A stretch of 64,000 bases of DNA from the NCBI GenBank assembly GCA_002633005.1, contig NMRA01000328.1, forward strand, positions 380,134-444,133, written 5' to 3'. The position numbers were made by a program, and so were the translations under genes. The notes beneath the pieces are model-generated. The model was given only the letters and a program-made list of their open reading frames with translations. It did not search any database and had not been told where the DNA came from. Origin of the DNA: Phoronis australis (Eukaryota > Animalia > Phoronida). This document shows positions 8,805-63,498 of this stretch, piece after piece (position 1 is the first letter of the stretch; every line of letters begins with the position of its first letter).

Positions 8805-8972
<168 letters not shown>

Positions 8973-10269: not shown

Positions 10270-10458
<189 letters not shown>

Positions 10459-10582: not shown

Positions 10583-10736
10583 ATGGTGGTTGACGTTAGC
10601 CGTAAGTTCCTACCCCAGATGTCCTGTGCAATGGACCACCCTAAAGTTACCCAACACATTGGTGACGGCTTCGAGTTTATGAGAAAACACACAAATGAGT
10701 TTGACGTTATCATCACCGATTCTTCTGACCCTGAAG
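10583..10736 (+). CDS. SRM: Spermidine synthase exon 4 (catalytic DSSD)
   Basis: ttgcag|...|gtaact, 154 bp: [51 protein letters not shown]. Confidence 0.98.
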
Positions 10737-11814: not shown

Positions 11815-11898
11815 GACCTGCTGAAGCCCTTTTCCAGAAGCAATACTTTGAACTGATGAAAGGTGCTCTACGTGAGGGAGGGATCCTCTGTAGTCAAG
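11815..11898 (+). CDS. SRM: Spermidine synthase exon 5
   Basis: (CT)n tract-cctag|...|gtatct, 84 bp: GPAEALFQKQYFELMKGALREGGILCSQ. Confidence 0.97.
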
Positions 11899-12949
11899 GT
11901 ATCTACCTTTTATTACCTGTATCTACCTTTTTATGCCAAACTGCTGCTGCACAGCGGCCATTATCATCAATTTCGGATTTTGATAGCACAGATCATATCT
12001 ATTTTAAAGCACAAGTTTTATATACAAATTATAGTGTTTTTACCAATTTGGAATGTTGTGTTTTCTTTGGCAAAGTGGCCCCCTGCATTGTTAACAGTCG
12101 TCAGTGATTCACCTTAGTGTTTGCTGTTCAGTTTATCTGATATTTGTTGTGTACAGTTATGAGAGCAAAAGTCTGTATATCACTTTATATAAAGTCTCTT
12201 GTTTGGTCTTTTTGAACCTCAACTACGAGTTGTTGTCCTTAAAAGAAGTCTGCATTGTATTTGTTTTACTAGCTTGACTTGTCACCAGGAACAGTGTCTG
12301 TAAGCACGTCAACTGCAACACCTCTCATGTACACTTGTAAATCGGTATAAAAAGCAAGGCATTGTTTGACATCATTGGTTCTTATTGAATCAGGCTTTCA
12401 TTTACTAAAGGGCAATCTGGCTTGAATGTTCTGTGCCTGATGGTAAAGTCTGGAAAGCTCATAGTCACATTTTACAGATTTAGCAGAAATGGTGTAGACT
12501 GTCACTAGCAAGCTGTTACAAAGAAGTGAACTTTTGATTTGTACCATTTACCGCTTTAAAACTGTTCTTTACTCAGACTGGTGAGAAGTGAATCTTGGGC
12601 TTGCAAAGAACATACAGTTTGTTATTGTTTGAGATTGCATCTCCGGTGTAAAATGACCCCTACTGTGACAAGCTAGCTTCTTGGTGCTCGTCTCTGTCCT
12701 TTTTACAACCTGAAATCAACTCTAATTTGAGTAAGGGACAAGCTGAGGCAAATACCATGATAACTGTAAATGGTCTAAATGAACGTTTTTGACGGAAAGC
12801 AGGATTATAGAAGCTTTAAGCAGTAGATCAGAACCAGTGATGTCACTACCCTCTATTTTAACTGGGTGTTGTCTGAAGTTGGTTTTATTGGTTGCAATGA
12901 GTGGCTTTACTCACTTGAGGTGCGAACTTTTAACCACTGAAATTTTGTT

Positions 12950-13190
12950 GTTACTCACAGTGCAACTTTCCCCTCAGACCCATGTGCATGTTTCACTGTT
13001 AGTAAAACTGTACTATTTCTCTGTTGAGCCAGTGGAATTCTGTACAGCTTTCCTATCAGGCTTGTGTGCACGTTTCACTGATATTAAAATTGTACAATTA
13101 TTCTTGTGAGCCAGTGGAATTCTGTTCAGCTTTCCTATCAGACTTGTGTGTACATTTCACTGATAGTAAAACTTACACCTACTTCTATCT
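12950..13190. repeat. Degenerate ~83-bp tandem repeat, about 3 copies
   Basis: tgagccagtggaattctgt.cagctttcctatcag.cttgtgtg.ac.tttcactgata.taaaa recurs at ~13025 and ~13107, with a partial copy upstream. Confidence 0.7.
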
Positions 13191-13667
13191 CTCAGTGGAG
13201 TACAATGTTGATATCAACATGAGGGCTAACTTGGTGTAGTGTATCCCATGTACCAGACTTCTGCCTAAAATACTAGCATTTGATTTTAGAAATGTTCCGT
13301 TATGAAGTTGGTATTGACTTGTTCGCATGTGGTTACTTGGTTTAAATATCATTCCTTGGCTTAAGAATAATTGACTGTTCCTTTACAGTTGAGTTGATTT
13401 TATCTAGTCTAGTCTCAAAAATTAAACAAGCTGATAGTTTTTCAGAGACTCCAAAATCAATTTGTAACTGAGATGATTCTTAATCAAATGTTGGCATTTT
13501 GGCCAGAAGTGACTGGTTGATCCTCTGTGACATTATTGAGCAACTGCTTGAGATACATAATTGTGTTGTATATCAGCATGTTCATGTTGTATAATCAAGA
13601 ATTATTAGTCTTTGTACATGCCATATGCTGGTCACATGCAACCCATAGTTGAACTCTGGAAAGATCT

Positions 13668-13747
13668 CTGGCCCGGCTGGGGTTCGAATCCGGGACTTTT
13701 TTACTAACCATGCTGATGCTCTAGTCCTCTGAGCTATTGGGACGACC
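13668..13747 (-). mobile_element. tRNA-derived SINE head
   Basis: Minus strand has A-box TAGCTCAGAGG and B-box-like GGATTCGAACC but no intact cloverleaf. Confidence 0.6.
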
Positions 13748-14308
13748 GGTGGATTACAGCAATACAAACAAAAATACAAAATCGCGAAAGTAGTAAAAAT
13801 TTGTGTTTACGGTAGCTGGGATTCCAAGAGAGACTTCAAGAGGCATTTTTAGAAATGTAAATTTTCTCGAAGTGATTTATGTTCTCAGGTATCTTTTGAA
13901 GAAGAAGTGGTGGGTCTTTTTTGGAAACTTGTATTGTATAGCGCTCTCATGCAGCAGTGGGCTTTGAAAGGGCTGTAAGGTGGAGTTGTGGCTTTGGAGG
14001 TGGTGATTTATTTCTTCTACTTAGGCTGTAACTTACAATACCAGCCAGAGTCCATTTTCAAAATAGTTTGTCTACTGTAAGAGTAATCTGACCAAACCTC
14101 CATTGACAAGTCATCCAAACTGAAACTACCACGGGTCTTAATCATTCCACTCAATCCTAGAAACAAGCTATATGTAAAAAAAATTGTAATATTCTCACTT
14201 TTGCCTGAATTTCTTAGACAATAGCTCTTAGATTGACTTGATATGGAGAAGACTTTTTTAATGTAAAATGTTTGGTTTAGAACTAGTCCATTTGCTTGTG
14301 GTTTGCAG

Positions 14309-14460
14309 GACAGTGTATGTGGCTGGAGAAAGATTTAACTCTCATGTATTATGTGTCACAGTCCTGCACCACACTGTTCCCTGTCGTTGACTATGCCTTC
14401 TGTACTGTACCCACTTACACTACGGGCTCCATTGGGTTTTTGCTGTGCTCCATGAACACT
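14309..14460 (+). CDS. SRM: Spermidine synthase exon 6a (divergent duplicate, predicted mutually exclusive)
   Basis: tttgcag|...|GTAAGT, 152 bp, phase 1 to 0, open: GQCMWLEKDLTLMYYVSQSCTTLFPVVDYAFCTVPTYTTGSIGFLLCSMNT. Confidence 0.8.
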
Positions 14461-15447
14461 GTAAGTGTCTTTTGGTGTGGACACATTTGTGCTCACCCAC
14501 AACAAGCTTTGCAGCTAGTCTTGAGCCACTTATGAGTCTGCGGTGACGGGAGGCTAATCTTTGGCCAGTTGACTTGACTGCTGAAACTGTTCTCATTTGG
14601 AGTTGCAAAAGTGTGCTGTCCTTGCAACTGTATCTCAGCATTATGTAGGACCATAGGAAAATGTCTAAATTTGGCTGACTTCGGAACATCAAATCTGAGA
14701 AATGGCTGATCGGGTTCATTTGAAACTTTCAAATGCTATGCTTTATGCATTGGTCCCCAAAACGCTGTTAAGAATTGTTATAAAAATGTTCCATTTGCAT
14801 GAAGGGCTAACAAAAGTTAAATACTATAGTTTTTTGTGAAAACTCAAAATTCGCATGAAACGAAAACAAATTAATAATTCAGAAAACTGTAGCAAGAATT
14901 TTGAGATTTCATCTTGAATATTTATATATTAAACAAAATTTGGTCATGTTGTTGATACCCTTGTTTTGCTATGAATGTTCCTTTCGTTTTTGCTAAATTT
15001 TACAAAAACACATGGTCATGTGACAGGATTTATGGCAAATTGTTATAAAGTGAAAAATGAAATTGGACAAGCTTCTGCTTTCAGAAAATATGTACGTTTA
15101 CAAAGTTAAAGTTTCTGTCGTTTTGTATAATTGACTAAATACTCAATGATTCTGAACAGGCACCCTTGTAGATAAGGTCCTACATTACCATGATATTTAT
15201 AGATATTTATACTTTTAGACCATTGCTCTGTCCAAAACAAAGCATTTGTTACAAAACATTTATTATTATTGTTGTTGTTATAGAAAGGAGGGTGGTTTTG
15301 TCAATATTGTCTGGACTGGCTTGTTGTGGCTGTACACAATAGTGTGGTGCTCTTGAGGTTGTTCCTTAAACCTGTCAGGCACAACTGCAGCTTTGGCATT
15401 AATATTGGTCAACACAAACAAATTAATTATGAATTTAGGTTTCCTGT

Positions 15448-15505
15448 GGTGCATGTCAGCCCTGGTGCATGTCAGCCCTGGTGCATGTCAGCCCTGGTGC
15501 ATGTC
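15448..15505 (+). promoter_or_regulatory. 16-bp tandem repeat providing four TGCATG (RBFOX-type) motifs upstream of exon 6b
   Basis: (ggtgcatgtcagccct)x3.6, with TGCATG at 15450, 15466, 15482 and 15498. The regulatory role is inferred. Confidence 0.5.
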
Positions 15506-15643
15506 TGCTGTTGTAATCTGATAGAGCCTTTCCTTAACCTGCTTCATGCTCCTCCTATCATCCTTGACAACTGTGCTTAACAGACATGTGATAAAGCCAT
15601 GACTTGGCAGAATCCTTACCTGCAAACTTGTTTATCTTAACAG

Positions 15644-15789
15644 GGGAGTGTTTTTGGCTGCACATTGAATTGATAAAAAACATGCAAGAGTTCTGCAGGT
15701 GCTTGTTTGCCTCTGTAGACTTTGCATACACGACCATTCCCACATACCCCAGTGGCCAGATCGGCTTCATAATGTGCAGTCTCAACCCT
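15644..15789 (+). CDS. SRM: Spermidine synthase exon 6b (canonical)
   Basis: taacag|...|GTAAGT, 146 bp, phase 1 to 0: [49 protein letters not shown], with the canonical [10 protein letters not shown]. Confidence 0.97.
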
Positions 15790-16590
15790 GTAAGTAGCCT
15801 TTGAGTGATCAAAATTTTCCATTTTGAATTGACATGCATTTTCGACTTCCAAATGCTGAATGATGTATTTATTTCCCATTGCTTATATTCTATGCAATGT
15901 GGAGTATTTCATCTATAGTGCTGTTGTTGTTTTTGAAATACAACTTTGTGGGGTGGTTGTAAACTCATGAATATCCGATTATATCACAAATAACTTGGGA
16001 ATGTGAAACTCAATTCATAATTTGCATTTTAGGTTGTGAGATTTGACTTTTAATGTGATCAGGTGATACGTACCTCCAGAGTCCTTCACACCAGTCTTGC
16101 TGATCTGAGTATTCATTTGATGCATTTAGAAGCTTGTTTTCAGTCATTACCGTTTTAAGATGGTTTCAGTGGACCCATGCGTACAATTCTGGTGCACGCA
16201 AGTGACCAGTGTTGTTTACCGTCCAACTGTTTGCACGTCACCAAGTTACTAGTGATATCATTGGATGTTTAAGAGCCGACAACTGTCCCACAATGCATTT
16301 GAATAATATCAGCAGCACCATAGATGAAATAGCCCAGAGTGATGCTTTGCTACGTCAGCATGTCCATATTTACAAGCTCTTTAATTGGCATCTATTGTAA
16401 AACATTTAAGTGAGATTGAATGTAAAATCTGTGTATTATATTAGATAGTGTGAGATTTATGGTCCGTTAACTTATACTTTTGCTTACACTTTGTAGTTAA
16501 AAGTGTATTACTAAGTAAAAGTATCATTTATCTTCAAAATGTGTGTGAACTTAACTTCTACTTTTCCTGAATGTAAGTTGAAAACTTGTA

Positions 16591-18044
16591 CCGTATTCGC
16601 CGTAATAACCACCCATGCCCCTACAAGCGGCCCCCCCACGCATTTTCGGACTTTGCTGAAATAAGCGCCCAGTCCATGAACGTGTACATGCGAACAATGA
16701 CGTACCTACAGTCCTAAAACTCGGCTACAGTAACGTCTTCAATTGATCAAAAAATTTTTGCACGGGTCTTCTAGACCACCAACAGCACTGCTACGTTTGT
16801 ATTTAGCCGTGACTGTACACTTTAAAGTAACGCCGTGCTTCAAAAAGAATGAAACAGCGTTGCTACTCTCGCGACTAACGTGTCCCACTATAGTCTGACC
16901 TTTCAGTACAGACACAGTGACGTCTCATGAATAAAAATAACTCGGTGTTAAACGCACGTGGCCATGAAGCGCGCGCTACATACATGAACCCATAGACAGT
17001 CTATCCATGAACCTGTCAACAAAGACATTAGTCGGGAACTATCCATTCATGAAATGGGTAGCATAGCATTGTTGAGAAATGAAAATTGGCACTAATTTCC
17101 AACAGTTTCTAATACTGTAAAAATATTTGCGTTATTTTTAAGATGGATTGTTTGATTAACCATAATTGGTGTTTTTAAGCCAAATGTCTAATAAAATGAC
17201 AACTGACAGTGAATGCTTACACACCCTTACACCGAAAAATATCTGTCAGATAGTCACGTACGCTTCCAGCTACATGGCGACTAATATGGGCTTTACTGAG
17301 ACAAATGTCGAAAGTTTTTAGCACATGAGACCGGCAAGTGCTGAATGAAACACGCTATGGTTTAGGCCTACTGCTTGTGTAAATTTCTTTAGATATAATG
17401 CACATCTAGTTCGTTAGATTACGTGCCTCTGGCCAAAAGACTGTCTCTGCTTTGGCAAATGAACTCTGGTGACACGCACGCGCTCGCTTACTCAAAAACG
17501 CAGACGAGCTTCAAAACAAACGTCACGTGACAACAACATGTGTGTTCGTCTAGACATTTTTCTCATGTTGCCGATCATACATGTAGATGGCACGATGTAG
17601 GACCAGTTTTTACTGAAACCTGCCGTTAATCCCAACTCCACGGGAAGTTAAAAATCTTAGGGACGCTAGTTGGAAAACTTAAGGAGGATTTCAGGTAATT
17701 TGCTTGAGTCGAAACAGGATTTTTATTCAAGCATTCAAGTCGCTATATCAATGATGACGATTGCGAGGCAGTCAGTCGGCGAGTTTTCGCCCTGGGATTT
17801 CACTGAGCACCATTTCTGGTAAAATGATCGTAATTTAGCAGCAAAGTTTGATAGCAATGCACCACAGTTTTGTAGATAGTCTTTCATAGATTACAGATAC
17901 GTCACAGAGCGTAAATTTGATGAATCTTAGCTTACGATTTCACCCGTTTCGAGGAACAGGTTTCAACTGCCTTGGGTTATAATAAGCGTCCCTCCTGAAC
18001 CGAACTTTTCTAAGCGCCCTGGGCAGTTATTACGGCGAATACGG
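16591..18044. mobile_element. Non-autonomous pogo/Tc1-mariner-type DNA transposon
   Basis: TA|CCGTATTCGCCGTAATAAC ... GTTATTACGGCGAATACGG|TA: perfect 19-bp TIRs with TA target-site duplication and no ORF. Confidence 0.9.
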
Positions 18045-18920
18045 TATTTTCTTTTGTAAATTTAAGTGGCACGTACTTGTAGTCATTTGATTGCCTTGAT
18101 AGCTCATTTTCACATCACATACAGCTGATATAGTCTGATAGTACACACATTCTCATCATAAATCTGTTAATGACGAAGTTTCAAAGGTCTGGATTGATGA
18201 GTCAGGCTGGTTACAGCATGTGCATTACATATTTCAGGGCAGCTTGGAACTCTGGCTCTGGCTCTTTAACCGAGAGTGAAAAACAGACGAGTTGGCTTTA
18301 TAACTTTGTAGTCCTAGTCAAAAGTCGAAGCTCTGATTAATTGCAGATGTTCCTTTATCTGAAAAATCAACTATGAAGGCACTACCAAGGCACTATCAAG
18401 GCACTCTAAAGACTTAGTATCACTCAAATTAACAAAAGAAAATACAGGATTTCAACTTACGTCTACACGCCATTTTATACATAGAAAACTTTTGTTTTCT
18501 CTTGTATCACCTTATGACAATGTCGTAAACACCAATCACGTGGTGCTGTAAGTAAAAGTATAAGTACACGTGACGTTTTTAATAGATTCTCACACTCTCT
18601 ATTTTTTCATTGTTTTTTTAGATTAGAATATTTTTAGCACTATTTTGTGTTTGACTGATCAAAAAGTTTATAATAATTTGATTTAGATTTTTTTTATTGT
18701 AGTCACATGTTTGTATCGGTTTTCCTTGTTCGAGAATAAAACTGAAAATATGAGCAAGTGCGTTTAGTCATAGCCGGTTTTGTATGAAGTTATCGGTGCG
18801 GTTTAAGTTATTTGGACCATTCATTTTTGCAGATATCATTTAATATTCATAACTTGGGTCATGTTTATTGTCTTGTGCTTAGTTTTAACGTATTCATTTA
18901 AAATTCTTTTCCTGTTGCAG

Positions 18921-19043
18921 GATACTAATTTCCGTGAACCACTGCGTAAGTGGTCGTTTGAGGATGCAGAAAATATGAACTGTCGTTACTACAATGGTGA
19001 CGTGCACAAGGCTTCATTTGTTGTCCCACAGTTTGTACAAAAG
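18921..19043 (+). CDS. SRM: Spermidine synthase exon 7
   Basis: ttgcag|...|gtacag, 123 bp: DTNFREPLRKWSFEDAENMNCRYYNGDVHKASFVVPQFVQK. Confidence 0.96.
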
Positions 19044-19933
19044 GTACAGGCAACGGGGTTTTTGGATTCCTTTGAATTATTTAAGCTGTAAAACTTGCAT
19101 AAATCTGACACACTTACTTATGATCTTCACTGATACCAAAGTTCTGCAGTTGCCCTAAATCATACTGTCTGTCCTTTTGGGCTCATCAGAATTTCACCAA
19201 ATTCATATAAAATCTCTCGGTTCAGTTGTGTGTGACTTATAATGCAGGTTTTACGGATCGTTCTAACACACTGAAACATTGTGCTGAAGGGCAATAATAA
19301 ATGTATTTTTAGTTAAGAGCAGTGTGTCTTACTAAATATCTAAGTACTTAGACTCTACTTCGCTAGCTAGCTGTCCATTGTGTTGTGTAATACCATAAAA
19401 TTGTAGGAATGGAATGTCATCTTCGTCACGCCATGCTCTCTAGTGTTGGAGCTTGTGACCCTGAGATTTCACAGCACTAACCGCGAATGCTTGCACTGTA
19501 TTAACAGTTGTTCTCTCGACTGAGTTTTGATCGAGTGTTGTAGTTATCAAAGCAAGTTTATTTTCATCTCTTGGTTTCATTTTGTCACCATTGTGTCACC
19601 GTTGTTCATAATGGAATCATCACATGAGACTCTTAAGGTGCAGTTCTGGATAACAAGATTTCTCATCAAAGTTAGTCAACAACAAAGCTGTCAGTTACTC
19701 TGGTCATTCTTTATAAGCACCCACCTGTTCCCTTCCTGGATGCTAGATAATCGGACCCCTGATATCTTTTCAGTTCCAGTCGAAGGGAACGTTAGGTCTA
19801 TAAGATCAAACTAAGCTTTTAGGATGTGGTAGTAATGAGAGTACTTCCTTGTGAATCTGTTCATATCTTGAATGAAATATATCTTACTACTAAGGTTAGC
19901 AAGTCAAAAACAAGACTTCTTTGAATCTAGCAA

Positions 19934-40101: not shown

Positions 40102-40425
40102 TCACTCTTCAAAACTCAGTTCGTCCAGTTCTCCTTTCAACTCTGTATTCACTTGAGCCTCTATGCTTGGTGGTACGACATCCAAACAAATGTCGTACTG
40201 CTGATCAAGACCAAGATACGAGTCGCTCATCAGATACAATGTGTAGATCACACGGCCGGTCTCCTCTGGAGTGTAAAATGCCAGTTGCTGGGAGGACTGC
40301 CCATGTACATAGCCCACTCTCTTCAAAGCCATCAATTCTTGATTCTCAATGTCGCCAAGTACCAAGAACCAGCCTTCATCTTTTGGTTTTGGAAAGTTGG
40401 GCGCATAAGCTTTGCTGTCTTTCTT
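40102..40425 (-). CDS. ASCC3: ASCC3 last coding exon (C-terminal Sec63 domain)
   Basis: KKDSKAYAPNFPKPKDEGWFLVLGDIENQELMALKRVG...YTLYLMSDSYLGLDQQYDI...*. Confidence 0.97.
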   Translation of the reverse strand, partial: KKDSKAYAPNFPKPKDEGWFLVLGDIENQELMALKRVGYVHGQSSQQLAFYTPEETGRVIYTLYLMSDSYLGLDQQYDICLDVVPPSIEAQVNTELKGELDELSFEE

Positions 40426-40915
40426 CTGAAATTGAACAATTGAATGGCACTTTCTACAGAGAACTACACCTATGACAACAATTATAAATCCATAATTTCA
40501 GTATTAAGGCCATAGAAGACCAAAAATGATAAAAGATAACACATTTTATTCAAGTTCTTTGATTATGATACATTGTACTTGTGTATCTCATTTCAACACA
40601 ATTTGGATACACCGCAAAAAGTTAAAGAATGGGCATCTTGAAAATTCAATGGGTGGCAGCAGTGAGACGAAGGTCCAACCAGTAGAAATACAATAACATT
40701 CAAGTAGTCGCGCAGATGTTGATAAACTGCTTTATGCTCTGGCTTTATTCAGATGTTAAACTGAGGGGACGTTCTTTGCATGAATGGTGAGTTGCCCACT
40801 GGCAATAATGAAAATACATAGCATGCAAGAACATATTGTTAAAAGACTAAGAAACCTGTGTGATAGAACTGGACAATTACTCGCCAAAGAAAATTTTTAT
40901 GTTTTTCATTATTAC

Positions 40916-44483: not shown

Positions 44484-45003
44484 CTGCGACAAACAGCATG
44501 CAATACATTAACTAAGTATGCGGTGCAAAGTATGCCACTATCCAGTCGACATAACTATGTATGGTGGTCACTAGTTAAACAGACTGATCGCAAGGACGGG
44601 TTATATGGACCTTCTGCATAGGGAACACTGCTTTTCCTGATCTACCCGAGTGATTGGTATTTATTTGTTTTATCAACACTCGACTGATGCTTCATAAGTT
44701 TCCTCTATTTTTGTCTTTTATAAGATTGACATGTTTTTACCTGCTTGATGTTCTAGCATTGCCTGATTGCTTTGGAAACACCTATAAAGGAGATAGTCTC
44801 TACAGCAACTGATTTAGCCACTTCACAAATACCAACCTCTTGAAAAGTGATATTACATCACCTCATAATACCTCGTACTGTGTTTAAGACAACTTTCAAA
44901 AGTATAAGTATCAGTGGTCACGTCAGAACCTACAGTTAATGCAAAGTAGTTGGTAGAGTATTAGGCACTTCACCAGAGTGTTTGTTAAAGACCTCCGACA
45001 GAC

Positions 45004-45172
45004 CTGACAAATCCTGATAGCTTGGTCCATGACTGACTTGGTGTCAGTCAGGTAGTCAGACGATGGTAACTGTAGTCGTGAGTAATGGGCTTGTAGCAAG
45101 ATATGAGTCTTGGTGTGAGAGTCGTCGTACGCATACTGATTCACTTCAAATGGGATACGCTGGGCTAGGTCA
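45004..45172 (-). CDS. ASCC3: ASCC3 exon
   Basis: 169 bp: [56 protein letters not shown]. Confidence 0.97.
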
Positions 45173-46352
45173 CTGGAATTACAAGAGAGTTGTAAAGTAC
45201 CCGAGTGAAACAGTACTAACTATTACAGTCACAGGTGGAGACAGGTGTGAAGTTGTAGATGATCATTTATTGCAAAATATCCCCAATTTAGAACAAAACA
45301 TGCAAGTAAAACCTTATTTTAAAAACCTCAAGTCTTATTTCAAATAATGACAGTGATAATAATTTAAGCCGTTTTCATGCAACTGTGTTGTGTAGGCTGG
45401 TATTGTCGAACAGTACCTGTGGTCACTGACAGTAATTTTAAAAACTCTTCAAACATGAAAAACCACAATACTGGATATCACTTTGTAAACTTGTTGCATT
45501 TTACCACTCAGTATGTCCTTATCAAATTTAAACAACAAACATTACTAGAGTGACACTTCAGAAAAAGAAGATGGCAATGAAGTTTGATCTTTTGACTTGC
45601 AAATTAAATTTAACTTCTTAAATGGGTTTATCATTATGATTTTGCTCTGTCGTTTCTATATTACCCACCTTGAGGGTTTATTTTATTTATACGTGGTAAC
45701 TGCGAAGCGATACCGAAGCTAGTTTACAGTGAAAGAACACATAAGGATGAGATAAAAGGTCATATATATTATGACAAACTAAACAACTACAGATATCAAT
45801 AAAAAGTTGTATAATAACTGTTAAGCTGTAAAGGTTGTGACAATCTGCACTATACTACTACAGGTATTGATAAATACAAATTATTTTATATTACTCATTC
45901 CTATTTATAACCACTATGTACTACTTTAGTATTCATACACCTCCCTACTCGTTATCTCATTGGTCAGTTACTTCTCCTTTGTGTCAGCCATCTATAATGT
46001 CTCACGCATTAGGCCTGCTGTGTTTTACCAAACTATTTTTCCTATTTTATCAATTTTTTTGTTAGGCTTTTCAGGCGTTTTCTTCATAGCTCCTTCAAGT
46101 TTGTTGTTCTTCTGTTTACTCTGGACACTTCTATGTAAACGCCATAGGCGTTTTTTTTACCAAATGGATTTTGAAGAATCTTGTTTTGTAGTACTTTTGC
46201 ACTTCCGTCACAATGCATGACATTCTACAATTCACGTCTAGTTTTACTCTGCAAGTTAGCTAGTCACACATCACAGGCAGAATAGATTCCGATAAAACAG
46301 TCACCAAATGGACCAAGACAGGCATTGACTGCATTGAATATTGAATACAAAC

Positions 46353-47499: not shown

Positions 47500-48160
47500 T
47501 TAGGTATAGGTAATGCTTTTCTGGACAGTCGCATGTTTCTGTCATACCACAGAAAAAAAACAAAACTAGGTGTAAAATGTGTAACTTCATCAACGATAGC
47601 ACTTTTTTCCAGTCTTCCCAAACCAATGAAAACTTTGAAATAAAACATTATTCTGATTGCACCACCAACAATATTATTTACCTTATAACTTGTAAAAAAT
47701 GTTCTATCCAATACATAGGACAAACTCAACATAATCTACAAACTCGGTTTCGTAAGCATAGATTTAACATAATACATAAAAACATTTCTGATACTATAGG
47801 TAATCATTTCAATTCCAAAAACCATAATATTCAAGATCTTTCTGTACAAATAATAGAAAAACTCCAACACCCCAGTACCCCTCACAGACTTAAAAGAGAA
47901 CAATATTGGATAGACAAGCTGAATACAATAGAACCTCATGGATTGAACATAAAAACTTCTTAAAATATGTCATTGAATTTTTTACGCAAAAATGTATCAT
48001 TTTCATTACACCATATCTTATATGTCAATTGTCATTTTGTGTTTGATTTTACTTTATTTCTGTTTTTGTTGATAAAGGAAGTTGTTACATCCGAAAATTT
48101 CAAATTTCAGTTGAACCATTCTTGTTGTTTTATTTACCGATTTATATATGTCATACCACA
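47500..48160 (+). mobile_element. 5'-truncated Penelope-like retroelement: GIY-YIG endonuclease and 3' region
   Basis: ORF 47577-47963: CKMC...NIIYLITCKKCSIQYIGQT...RFRKH...NHFNSKNH...IIEKL...REQYWIDKLNTIEPHGLN. Confidence 0.9.
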
Positions 48161-54642: not shown

Positions 54643-54691
54643 CATGAGTCCATTAAATGGAATTGAATATAATTTGATGTTTTTTTTGCAG

Positions 54692-54964
54692 TGTTAGAAC
54701 AGCATGTGTGTTTCAAGCAAGACTTTCCTGGTTATGTCACCATTGGGTGCACTTCACAAAGACAAGTGCTTCATGTCCTCTCTGCTGAACTTGGAAGTGA
54801 AGACAGTTGTAAATATAACTCAAACTGCTTGCCAATCAACATCACACGGGATGCCAGACACCAATGTAATGGAAGACATCAGTGTCACCTACCAATAAAA
54901 GTAGTCCAGAACAGCTGCCAAAACTTGGTCAACTTCATAGGCATCAAGGCAGAGTGCAGGCAAT
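54692..54964 (+). CDS. Nested receptor exon 2, SUEL/Gal-lectin-like domain 1
   Basis: tttgcag|...|gtaagt, 273 bp, phase 1-1. Eight Cys in SUEL-like spacing (C...C...C...C...CNGRHQC...C...C). Confidence 0.85.
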
Positions 54965-55218
54965 GTAAGTGTTGAAACCTTGGTTGGTATAACACAGGAT
55001 GTTTAAACTAGACCTTAAGTGACCTCCACACACAGAATAGGACAAGTAACCTCTCAAATCAGTTGTCACTATAGGTTTGAGGACTGTTTGGACACTATAG
55101 TGCAACTAGCCCCACCTGTGACAACTTACGCCACATTATCGAAGTAAGATAACTTGTTCTAGGGTAACTTGCCCCACTTCTAATAGCTATGTGGCTGCCT
55201 TTCGCTAATTTTTAGATA

Positions 55219-56740: not shown

Positions 56741-57288
56741 GTTTTTCCTATGCCCATCTAGCCGAGTCTAGTTTTCTATTTCATTTTGTACTTACATCAC
56801 AATACATGATATTATTTGACAACCCACACCTTGGTTAACACTGGAACATAAGCTGATTAACATCCAAGATTTACTTCAGACAAGGGTTTGAATTCAAGGA
56901 AGGTGCACCTACATTAAGAGATGTAGCAGATAGAGCTTCAGGACAAGTAAATTACATTTATGATAGACATATGTCCCGAATAATAGATAAATGATACGTG
57001 CGTCACAAGCTCATGCCCATAAATATGGGTAGGAAAGTTTAGTTTTATTTAGATAATGTCAAAGACAATTAGCAAAATAGACTAGATTAGATTACGGACA
57101 TAGAACTGCCCCCTGAGTCCATCTTGTATATTTTGGTTGCTGGAAAATGGTGACTAACAAGCCCGATTGGGTTGAGTACTTTCACACAATCAAGTTGTAA
57201 TTGTAAAATGTATTACCATACTCACTATAATAACTGAATATTATATCATGCCATGTCATATATATACTAAAGATGTTTTCTCTTTCAG

Positions 57289-57582
57289 CAAATTCATTTC
57301 TATGGTCAACTTGCTACAACAGTACAGTAAAGGAAGTTGAGTTATATTGCCCTAATGATAACCACACCATGGTCATTCATTGGGCGACAACGAGCAGTGA
57401 AGGACTGTGTGCATCCAACCCTATACCAAACAAGTGTGTTAAAGACGTGACTAGAACTGCACAAACCCGCTGCACTGGATTTTCTGAGTGTTACATACCC
57501 CTCTACCCCACATCATCATCATCATCATCATCGTGCAATACACAGAACAACTACATAGATGTCAAATACACCTGCGTACCAC
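57289..57582 (+). CDS. Nested receptor exon 3, SUEL/Gal-lectin-like domain 2
   Basis: tttcag|...|gtaagt, 294 bp, phase 1-1: TCY...LYCP...LC...KC...RCTGFSEC...C...YIDVKYTC, with an internal poly-Ser. Confidence 0.87.
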
Positions 57583-58734
57583 GTAAGTGATAAATTACTT
57601 GAAAAAGTAAGAGTACCATCAGTGTCTATACCTAAATACCAAAAAATCGAGAGATTGACCATAAATCATATATGAATGAGATCAAGTGTTGATAAACTCC
57701 CCTTCTGTCAAAAACAACTTTTGATTTTGGACAGATTGTTATTAAATAATTGTCATTTTGCTTCTTACTCAGAACAAAAATGATTTCTAAGTTTGAGACC
57801 TGATTGGTTTTTATTACATACTGTGAGTATATGCTTCAGACCACGCCCATTGACTTGCTTGTCATGGGACTGACTTAGTTTCAGACAAAATTGAGGTCTT
57901 CAATTTATAATAACCATTGTCAATACACAGGGAAGGAAATCGTAGTTAGCAATACACTGGTGGACATACAATGACTAATTTCAAAGTAAGATAAAATGTG
58001 AATGAAACAGTTTTTTATTACGTAGTAAGAATTCTGCAGTTCAGAACAGTGAAAATTAATTGTTTTGCTTGAGGTCAGAGCATGTACCAAAATTCAGAAT
58101 ACTGGCATTTGCCATCATGTGAAACCGTATGTTCCACGATAGCAGTCATATTACCTAAACAACACTCAATATACCTTATTATTTCTAACATCAGAATATG
58201 GTCCATAGCAGCTCTGAGTAACAAATTCGTGACTATTTGTAATATATCTTGCACACATCTTAGGGATTTTTATCTTATAGTAACAAAGAGTGGTTTTGAA
58301 AAAAGACAAAAAACAATAGTCAGAGAATGAAATTTTCACATTGGTTCAAGGTTTCAGAAAGATGGCTTAAAGGAGAATGCCACCCAAAAAACAACCTATT
58401 TTGTATCAATTTAGATCGAATAGTTCTACTCGATAACGGCAGGTTCAGTTGCGTTACCTGACAACTGACGGCAAACGGAGGTGGTCAAAGACTGGATCTC
58501 CTGATTGACTAATTTTGTCTAATTTTGGACATGTTGACTAAGCAGAGAGTAAAAGGAATTATTCCTTTAATAAGATTGTTCAAAACTTTCACTAGATCTT
58601 AATAACTTAGAAATTTACTGAACATCTCAAACTCCTGCTCAACTAATCTTTGTTCCAATATGATATACTGAAAGTCCTCTTAACATTTCAAATTTAAGTC
58701 AATTTACTGCGTAAATCCGCCATTTTTCTGAATT

Positions 58735-59660: not shown

Positions 59661-59819
59661 TTTGTTGCTTGGAAAACACATAATTTAAATGAGACTAATT
59701 TATAATGGTATAACCTTAACGCAAAGGTTCAGGCCTACTGTCAATTGCCAATATTTCCCATGTTCTGCTGCACAATACAATAAGTTTGTTGTAAATTAAC
59801 CTCTTGCTTGTACTTCCAG

Positions 59820-60215
59820 CTGTCAACCGATATGAAATATGTGATACAGTAGACAAGTACATTCCACTGTCAAGTCGGTTACAGTTGACTAGTCCTCTTT
59901 ACCCTGAGTACTATAGCCGATGGAACAACTACCTGCCGTTTAAATGTGGCTGCATGCTTAAGTTGCCTGATCTAAGCGTGTACCGCAACATCATAATTAA
60001 AGTGTTTCACTTTCAAATGTCAAAGGCTTTTGACTGCGCTGTAGCCAACCACGTGACTATCGACAGTGAGAAAGATGGTATTCCAAATCGTGATGTGTTC
60101 TGCGGCAGCCTGCCTCCAGAGACCACATTCAATATCAGCAGCAACATCATTAACACCACTTTGATAGTTTACAACACTTCAGAAGAACAAGAGGGATTCT
60201 GGGTCACCGTGAAAG
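59820..60215 (+). CDS. Nested receptor exon 4, CUB-like domain
   Basis: ttccag|...|gtatat, 396 bp, phase 1-1: C...LTSPLYPEYY...C...IIIKVFHFQM...DC...VFCG...GFWVTV. Confidence 0.88.
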
Positions 60216-61243
60216 GTATATAAATTAATCCATTTTGCAGAATAATCTCTGAATAAGCTGCGAAAGAGTCTGACCATTGAAACATACTGCTAGCATTGCC
60301 CTCTTGCGCTTATTCACAAAATTGTAAAAGCTTATTTCAGAACGTTGTTTTGCAAATAGTCTCCATGAATAAATTGGTAGACTGATTAGCTTAAAGCCTA
60401 ACTCCTACGATATTTTTTATTTTAGATGTATTGGGCTAACCAGTTACTGCTAGCAAAGCCTTAGTAAAATATGAAAACTTGAGTTCAATCACGCAAATAT
60501 AAGCCCGACAAATGATAGGTGAAGCTGCCTTTTCGTGTCATGTTGCATCACCGCGATATCCCAGCAAAAACAACAAAAGGCAGATAGCACTTGTATTGAA
60601 TAGGGGTCTGAAAAGAATACCATTGCGTTTTGGAGTTATTTGCAGCTTTTTGAATTAAAAGGTGATTCTCGTGGTAACAAGAGCAAACCAATATGCCTAA
60701 CAGTTCGTTGCATTTGGCAATTTATGGCACTAGTGTTCTCAGAGCGATGCTCTAAACATACTGTAGGAACCAAATTTAAAGGTGTTACCATTCAAGAAAG
60801 GCTTTAAAATAGGCAGGTGTTTTGATCTAGTTGTTGATGAAGTGTAACTGGTTACATGGACAGGCGATTTGTGCTGCCACCTGATACTAATTAGTTTTAG
60901 ACACATGAAAAGAATCCTTTGTAAGAAATATGATGTGGTTGCATGCTGAAATAATTTGCAGTGGAGACCACATTAAATCAAAAAAGTGGAAAGGATTGAT
61001 TCTTGAAAAAACGGAATCGAAGGTAAATATTGAGAAAGAACTTCACACGTACCATTTCGAGCATGGCAGTTACCAGACACAATGCCTAAAATTGTAAAAT
61101 TTAGGCAAAATTTTGTTCCACAAGTTTTGTACCAGTAGCTCCATGTCTTCATATATTTACTACCCACAAGTCCTCTAAACTGAGGTTCAACAATATCACA
61201 ATATGATCCGAATTTAACATTGACATTATAACTTTATTTCTAG

Positions 61244-62662: not shown

Positions 62663-63080
62663 GTGAGTCAATCCGCACTCAACAGAACATTTTGTGAAAA
62701 TACACAAAAACGTATAGTGTTGGAATTGCACTTATGCAAATCATGAGATGACATCTTACTGCAGACATGCAAAATGGCAGGTTGGAGGTTATTTCCCAAA
62801 TTGTGGCCCGTAACAAACATTGCCAGAGGAGAAGAAACTATACCTGACAATCTATAATTAAAAACACTGATAGTCCCTAAGTTTCAAACCACACTCATTC
62901 CACTGGTGGTTTCTAGACACCAAAGTTTTAAAGAAATTCGTATTTTAGCTTAAGCTACTATCGATCACCAAAATCAAACAAGTTTTAGACAGGTGCAAAG
63001 TTCATTTTACAATCTTCTGTTCTACAGGACACTAGAGACTGGATACAATTGCAAGAATAAAATTTACAATTCTTTCTCAG

Positions 63081-63498
63081 GAAACGACAAAACTCCATGT
63101 CTGGCCGCTCACTGCCACCACTGCCCCCAGGTGACAAGTTTGAGAACCTTTACCCTGGACCTGCCACAGCTCCACGTAAAGGAATAGATAACCTAGGCTA
63201 CAGTAAGACAGATGGTGAAGATATGTATGAGACTATACCATATGATGAATACGACCCATCCAAAGAGAATAAATACATAGAGCTATATGGCGGCAGTACA
63301 CAGGAGGGTAATGTCTACCTGACACCAGATGGTACTTCAAGCCCTCGCGCCCAACAAAATGACTATGTGGGTCTGTCCAAGGGCATTCAGCCACCAAATA
63401 GCGCTGCCTCTTCTAGTGCGGCAGATAGGACTCAGTACGAATCGCTGGCAAAGAACAGCGGTGGGGAAACATATGTCTATGCATCACAAGTCCCGTAA
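63081..63498 (+). CDS. Nested receptor exon 7, tyrosine-motif-rich cytoplasmic tail
   Basis: tctcag|G AAA CGA...TAA, phase 2 fits: KRQNSMSGRSLPPLPP...YETI...YIEL...YLTP...YVGL...YESL...*. Confidence 0.9.

Follow-up and report, generated by a model that had tools for sequence, protein, structure and literature searches.

Alternative copies of exon 6 in the spermidine synthase gene of Phoronis australis are spliced as a mutually exclusive pair and may specify two aminopropyltransferases

Ketohexokinase is switched between its A and C isoforms by homologous mutually exclusive exons. PKM1 and PKM2 likewise differ by two homologous exons, one of which enters each mRNA and which alter part of the enzyme (as described in PMC5620227). 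Amongst aminopropyltransferases, the budding-yeast (Spe4-type) and plant spermine synthases are reported to carry a second specificity on a spermidine synthase scaffold (PMC12803844), which is what we propose below for one isoform of an animal gene. The same 2025 survey of the origins of eukaryotic spermine and thermospermine synthases lists gene duplication and gene transfer, leaving splicing unmentioned in the sections available, and reports nematodes to be without the animal spermine synthase (PMC12803844). Here, we describe a spermidine synthase (SRM) gene in which a single exon is present in two homologous versions, 6a and 6b, that are spliced as a mutually exclusive pair, with both versions used at a ratio of approximately 1:1.

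The gene lies in a stretch of 64,000 nucleotides of P. australis DNA, referred to here as the window (Table 1). Exons 2 to 8 are of the SRM type; their best matches are scallop SRMs, at 69% identity, and a quick tree did not resolve their position amongst invertebrates. A tblastn search with 12 relatives as queries gave no match for exon 1 within the window. Residue numbers are those of human SRM (PDB chain number minus 2), which we take to be 302 aa in length. The original prediction had described two open exon copies of 152 and 146 nt, both running from phase 1 to phase 0 between an AG and a GTAAGT, and every one of these properties was recovered: each copy has a CAG acceptor, a GTAAGT donor and an open frame, and each is 3n+2 nt long. 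A hand alignment giving 22/51 identical residues agrees with the computed value, which is 21/50 within the exons and 22/51 when the split Gly is counted. Since both exons exceed the Pfam PF01564 cut-off of 22.9 bits (30.2 bits for 6a and 38.8 bits for 6b, at the same Pfam positions 133-179) and both match human SRM, aligning to residues 208-255 (E = 3e-13 and 1.5e-18, respectively), their homology is not due to chance. At the DNA level, the exons and their upstream flanks are no more alike than shuffled sequences, the downstream flanks have at most marginal similarity (5/200 shuffles score as high) and identical residues use the same codon in only 9/20 cases. The duplication is therefore old, because no clear DNA similarity is left and so few codons are shared.

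Table 1. Exons of the P. australis SRM gene, with positions counted from the first nucleotide of the window
Feature	Position	Strand	Observations
SRM shared exon 2	8825..8945	+	Located by tblastn; joint to exon 3 in 12/13/15 reads
SRM shared exon 3	10315..10407	+	GGGDGG dcSAM motif (D104) and E124; joints in RNA
SRM shared exon 4	10583..10736	+	D155, catalytic D173, D176
SRM shared exon 5	11815..11898	+	Ends in phase 1; RNA joints to 6a and to 6b
Exon 6a, variant copy	14309..14460	+	152 nt; E208Q, His213 lost, 2-aa insertion, P242T; Tyr241 kept; 13 upstream and 24 downstream junction reads and one contig
Exon 6b, canonical copy	15644..15789	+	146 nt; E208, H213, Y241, P242; 22 upstream and 17 downstream junction reads; human SRM match
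SRM shared exon 7	18921..19043	+	Starts in phase 0; RNA joints
SRM exon 8, coding part to stop codon	23405..23455	+	Loose read ends behind exon 7 match exon 8; frame of both isoforms closes there

Several other features were observed in the window. Intron 5 contains an 82-nt tandem repeat (12960-13173), a 16-nt tandem repeat lies approximately 140 nt upstream of exon 6b (15447-15508), and the intron after 6b holds two elements with inverted ends (15895-16341 and 16589-18046), the second of which is covered by numerous reads that come from other copies. Exons of a Sec63/Brl-domain helicase gene, probably ASCC3, occur on the minus strand further downstream than SRM (40102-40497 and 44923-45219). 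Weak matches to SUEL lectin, below the cut-off, together with further open frames (54673-54975, 57234-57590, 59795-60223 and 63061-63498) possibly belong to one surface protein gene, and a GIY-YIG endonuclease frame at 47514-47963 is probably the remnant of a mobile element.

To establish how the two copies are used, we analysed three raw RNA runs from one study (X2, X3 and X4) and one older contig set (X1). Approximately 18-19% of each raw run was read and aligned at 97% likeness to the region 11816-19060, and a joint was listed if it was represented by three reads from two starts in one run, or by a contig. Exactly four joints were listed in this region and all four are present in each of the three raw-read runs: exon 5 to 6a (2/5/6 reads in X2/X3/X4), exon 5 to 6b (6/6/10), 6a to exon 7 (11/9/4) and 6b to exon 7 (3/7/7). 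These are the joints that had been proposed as a check, and with totals of 37 reads for 6a and 39 for 6b they demonstrate that both isoforms are expressed; the 6a share is 0.49 (95% interval 0.37-0.60) and the ratio is alike across the three runs (chi-square p = 0.28). No joint from 6a to 6b, or from exon 5 to exon 7, reached the listing threshold in the same fraction of each run, compared with 76 single-inclusion reads, in agreement with the mutually exclusive architecture that had been predicted. The X1 contig runs through exons 4-5-6a-7; contigs drop variants, and it is proof of the presence of 6a only. Sense-strand reads were also observed over 11899-15643 (intron 5 and portions of the intron between 6a and 6b), with a depth of at most approximately 5, and may represent unspliced precursor.

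Either exon alone maintains the downstream frame and both isoforms end at the same stop codon. As anticipated from the exon lengths, the frame is broken when both exons or neither are included, with premature termination at 15671 and 18926, respectively, which is 239 and 115 nt ahead of the last junction. We infer that mRNAs of both kinds are removed by nonsense-mediated decay (NMD), which would enforce exclusivity; dependence on NMD has been reported for 14/19 non-3n clusters in C. elegans (PMC4165533). Steric block was ruled out as the enforcer, the 6a-6b intron of 1183 nt being too long. Docking-selector RNA pairing was also rejected, as a scan of all windows gave values at or within the shuffled range; two intronic duplexes beat 15/15 shuffles, but in chosen windows only. 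The two SNPs observed in 6a leave the protein unchanged, and 7/8 exon SNPs overall are synonymous, although these numbers are small. The sole non-synonymous SNP, at 18996 in run X4, changes Gly to Cys in shared exon 7.

The 6b isoform contains GGGDGG, D104, E124, D155, D173, D176, E208, Y241 and P242, which upholds the original view of 6b as the canonical copy and suggests, by homology, that this isoform is the normal spermidine synthase converting putrescine to spermidine. For 6a, alignment to human SRM confirmed the listed changes (E208Q, H213E, a 2-aa insertion, P242T, S243T and Q245S), with position 213 read as Glu or Asp depending on where the insertion is placed. S243T and Q245S had been given weight, which is not justified, as both also occur in ordinary spermidine synthases and carry little signal. 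The dcSAM and catalytic residues (D104, E124, D155, D173 and D176) had been assigned to the shared exons and are indeed located there; the assignment did not extend to Tyr241, a catalysis helper reported to stabilise the reaction (PMC13619349), which is encoded by the switched exon, with both copies retaining it.

Comparison of aligned segments indicates that the losses of His213 and Pro242 are the informative changes in 6a and that these two residues co-vary. Amongst 317 distinct segments, 195 have His/Pro at positions 213/242, 82 non-His/Pro, 39 non-His/non-Pro and one His/non-Pro, so that His213 is missing from 39/40 segments without Pro242 compared with 82/277 segments with Pro242; this sample was enriched for Thr242 by a profile and holds close kin, and the Fisher value overstates the association. 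The best 30 loci of 61 bacterial genomes comprise 19 His/Pro, 10 non-His/non-Pro and one Asp/Pro locus, with no His/non-Pro combination; an exception amongst the other bacterial loci, L140, aligns as His213 with Ala242. Glu208, which is replaced in 6a, is kept in 34/37 of the non-Pro242 segments that cover this position. Neither residue of the pair is retained in two fish copies that hardly differ from each other and share 85% identity with tilapia SRM; the same applies to a second SRM from a chiton, to Coemansia fungi and to a Nadsonia protein named spermine synthase. The latter is the only Thr242 protein amongst 120 matches, its name being an annotation of a single protein outside the validated enzymes seen, and no PTYT sequence was found in the supplements of PMC12803844 and PMC11107197. 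In solved enzymes, residue 242 is Ala in thermospermine synthase, Phe in the Thermus enzyme and Gly in that of Pyrobaculum, the latter two described as substrate-flexible (PMC11107197); it is Tyr in E. coli SpeE and Pro in the B. subtilis enzyme.

Some sequences encountered in these comparisons are of interest in their own right. Proteins from Enoplosus armatus (P0329 and P0432) and Liolophura sinensis (P0400) combine His213Asp and loss of Pro242 with a changed N-terminal hairpin, and are possibly new aminopropyltransferases that arose by gene duplication. An SRM-like group (P0330, P0333, L002 and L012) has Asp213, Thr242 and an altered dcSAM-side motif, with Phe at position 28 as well in P0330 and P0333, a residue shared with the Nadsonia protein. 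Three Coemansia proteins (P0332, P0337 and P0359) have Asp213 and Thr242 outside the budding yeasts and are candidates for dual spermidine/spermine activity. Residues 213/242 distinguish three types amongst Desulfobacterota-type loci (L129-L133 and L153-L182): His/Pro, Phe/Thr and Gln/Ile-Val. One locus of the Gln/Ile-Val type, L173, is flanked on both sides by genes that are SpeD-like by sequence.

A phmmer search with 6a against 1.84 billion representatives gave 242 matches, 150 of which were listed. The matches listed are mostly canonical, several have Thr at 242, and five are single-exon ORFs with a 2-aa insertion similar to that of 6a. When a follow-up profile was built from 13 Thr242 segments, its best 11 matches were proteins containing two tandem copies of the segment, all 11 of nematode origin by name or likeness and nine by name (four Caenorhabditis species, Haemonchus, Diploscapter, Heterorhabditis, Halicephalobus and Aphelenchus). 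In 11/11 the upstream copy contains W-L/I-D and PTYT and the downstream copy contains STYP, with WLH in 10/11 of the downstream copies; the order, variant then canonical, is that of 6a and 6b. The linkers between the copies vary and often begin with Val, as would be expected if gene finders had ignored a donor so as to restore the frame. The C. elegans SPDS-1 model of 366 aa (P0317) and ten similar two-copy chains have the appearance of artefacts in which a mutually exclusive pair went unrecognised and the frame was repaired, and the C. elegans model exceeds the crystallised protein of 314 aa by 52 residues, corresponding to the variant copy plus linker. A double-inclusion form may also be real in nematodes.

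In Steinernema carpocapsae, TMS34840.1 and TMS34841.1 are two annotated isoforms of one locus, identical outside the switched segment, and a structural model of the variant isoform has an intact SRM fold (pLDDT 88.5, 0.9 Å rmsd to human 2o06). A 156-nt spds-1 event in C. elegans is neuron-regulated according to the supplement of PMC12084653, with a maximum dPSI of 0.68 and differences in 131/741 neuron pairs; we matched this event to the variant exon by length, and the annotation treats it as a cassette, so that exclusivity in C. elegans does not follow. Differential use of spds-1 transcripts under acid stress has been reported in a marine nematode, the event being unspecified in the text available (PMC13405938), and the main text of a survey of mutually exclusive exons in C. 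elegans makes no mention of spds (PMC4165533). The original prediction knew of no such switch in SRM. This stands insofar as we found no description in the literature on spermidine synthase, spds-1 or aminopropyltransferase splicing, a search with subscription papers mostly outside its scope; what it missed is the same tandem pair in nematodes, including C. elegans, whose isoforms are already in annotations, unremarked.

How might one exon alter the enzyme? In Arabidopsis SPDS, Glu236 contacts the distal amine via water, helix alpha8 probably positions the groove-closing Trp, and the loop beta11-alpha8 and strand beta12 are at the dimer interface (PMC6514230). Glu236 aligns with human Glu208, and exon 6 would thus build the far end of the amine groove, contributing Glu208, the Trp-positioning helix and the Tyr241-Pro242 loop. 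Pro242, together with Ile246, presumably lines the putrescine pocket. Each mRNA would take one copy of exon 6 to give either the standard enzyme (6b) or a second enzyme (6a), in which loss of His213 and Pro242 is predicted to loosen the far end of the groove, with the shared exons providing both isoforms with unchanged dcSAM-binding and catalytic residues. The co-variation of the two residues, the recurrence of their loss and the location of the exon at the bottom of the groove suggest, with a probability that we put roughly at 0.55, that 6a encodes a functional enzyme that accepts a broader set of amines, including one longer than putrescine. They thereby lend indirect support to the specificity switch of the original prediction.

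With respect to the acceptor itself, cadaverine or agmatine is a tentative guess, and spermidine, which would give spermine, a slightly less probable one. Spermine as the 6a product is doubtful because none was detected in whole C. elegans (as reported in PMC11091686 and PMC6780408). N-acetylspermine and cadaverine have been reported in this animal (PMC11091686), and a neuron-restricted product could be overlooked in whole-worm assays. Also counting against spermine, Trp28, the residue that closes the groove, is encoded by a shared exon in nematodes and retained in their isoforms, whereas the Nadsonia protein has Phe at this position. A further point against the main reading is that E208Q and the insertion of 6a are not found in the nematode variants. 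Plasmodium SpdS is reported to make some spermine (amongst PMC3853187, PMC12749970, PMC12639133, PMC4356361 and PMC12812037).

An altogether less probable reading, although the strongest of the alternatives, is that both isoforms make spermidine from putrescine and that 6a differs in kinetics, product inhibition, stability or dimer preference, in the manner of PKM1/PKM2. The lack of detectable spermine in C. elegans and the retention of Trp28 in nematodes would accord with this, as would the dimer-interface elements that exon 6 probably also bears, judging from Arabidopsis SPDS. E. coli SpeE is a spermidine synthase though it is without Pro242, which counts against an acceptor change in 6a. 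Moreover, the Thr242 enzyme is the only one of standard length in 5/5 incomplete Desulfobacterota-type genomes; Thr242 is therefore compatible with activity and need not mean a second activity or a new product. A common reaction is, however, harder to reconcile with repeated loss of the same two residues in second copies (fish, chiton, the nematode exon and 6a) and in a protein named spermine synthase, or with the long-amine enzymes that are without Pro242.

It is improbable that the 6a product has little or no activity of its own and instead acts on 6b as a regulatory partner within heterodimers. SRM is dimeric with exon 6 at the interface, 6a is without the Glu208 that nearly all non-Pro242 segments keep, and the near 1:1 mRNA ratio would suit heterodimers if both forms share a cell; yet Tyr241, Gly244 and all the shared catalytic residues are intact in 6a, Glu208 is retained by the nematode variants, and the differences between neuron types reported for C. 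elegans fit expression in separate cells better. Finally, the longer branch of 6a (0.6-0.86 compared with 0.23) and the failure to find a 6a orthologue in a named close relative by word-based search, phmmer or the Thr242 profile would suit a decaying, leak-spliced duplicate devoid of function, but a dead pseudo-exon is rejected by the junction reads, about half of which join 6a, and decay of any kind is very improbable given that the 6a frame has stayed open despite unlike flanking introns and few shared codons, that its SNPs are synonymous and that a parallel exon is maintained across nematodes.

The origin of the pair was addressed with trees built on 46-48 exon columns and with an AU test in which the trait columns were dropped. 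Grouping 6a with the nematode variants (p-AU 0.40), with 6b (0.375) or with the five insertion-bearing exons (0.25) was rejected in no case. The nematode copies group with each other (support 90/91), and these tree topologies lean towards a duplication separate from that of 6a/6b; descent of 6a and the nematode variants from one ancient duplication may also account for the data. A grouping of 6a with three of the five insertion-bearing exons (93/78) was weak and vanished from the tree with trait columns dropped. A word-based search with 6a alone, which is a weak test, gave no match, none of 14 metagenome loci has two exon copies at one locus, and a genome pattern scan yielded 12 aminopropyltransferases amongst 114 loci, none of which is a validated enzyme. 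No duplicated segment was present amongst the 120 SRM matches or cluster members (molluscs, annelids, echinoderms, tunicates and a bee), a comparison of proteins only in which unannotated exons are possible.

If 6a does extend the acceptor range, an exon-level route would be added to the mechanisms by which such enzymes originate, one that is invisible to gene-level searches, and the view of nematodes as having only putrescine and spermidine enzymes would be reopened. In C. elegans, a model animal, work on ageing and desiccation makes use of spds-1. The pair of isoforms provides a natural experiment on acceptor length in aminopropyltransferases, and singles out two residues, His213/Pro242, that can be mutated in human SRM. 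A broader proposal, to which we give somewhat less than even odds, is that animals repeatedly (or once, followed by many losses) built a second polyamine-forming enzyme by duplicating an SRM exon and swapping two residues of the pocket, and that in C. elegans, regarded as a producer of putrescine and spermidine alone, a hidden isoform makes spermine or a higher polyamine in chosen neuron types.

Compared with human SRM (PDB 2o06), all the shared exons and 6b of the Phoronis gene are canonical. The animal spermine synthase (SMS) was rejected as its identity, since exons 2-8 are of the SRM type, rather than an AdoMetDC-like domain with a divergent bacterial-type APT domain (exon 1 being outside this comparison), as was thermospermine synthase, exon 3 encoding GGGDGG and not GGGEGA. 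The motif described for spermine synthases derived from spermidine synthase, GGGD(G/C)G (PMC11107197), is present in the 6a isoform through shared exon 3 and is uninformative, as it also occurs in spermidine synthases. The nematode spds-1 locus resembles 6a/6b in that the same segment is duplicated in tandem with the variant upstream, and Steinernema annotates alternative isoforms. In C. elegans, unlike the mutually exclusive 6a/6b, the annotation of spds-1 treats the variant as a 156-nt cassette that is included alongside the canonical copy, and the nematode variants keep Glu208 and are without the 2-aa insertion, whereas 6a has both E208Q and the insertion. The yeast protein from Nadsonia shares the loss of His213 and Pro242 with 6a and additionally has W28F. 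Yeast and plant spermine synthases are reported to have arisen by whole-gene duplication (PMC12803844), whereas here one exon was duplicated and the activity of 6a is predicted from sequence. The PKM and ketohexokinase switches change regulation or affinity in the same reaction; in contrast, a new amine acceptor in 6a would change the product.
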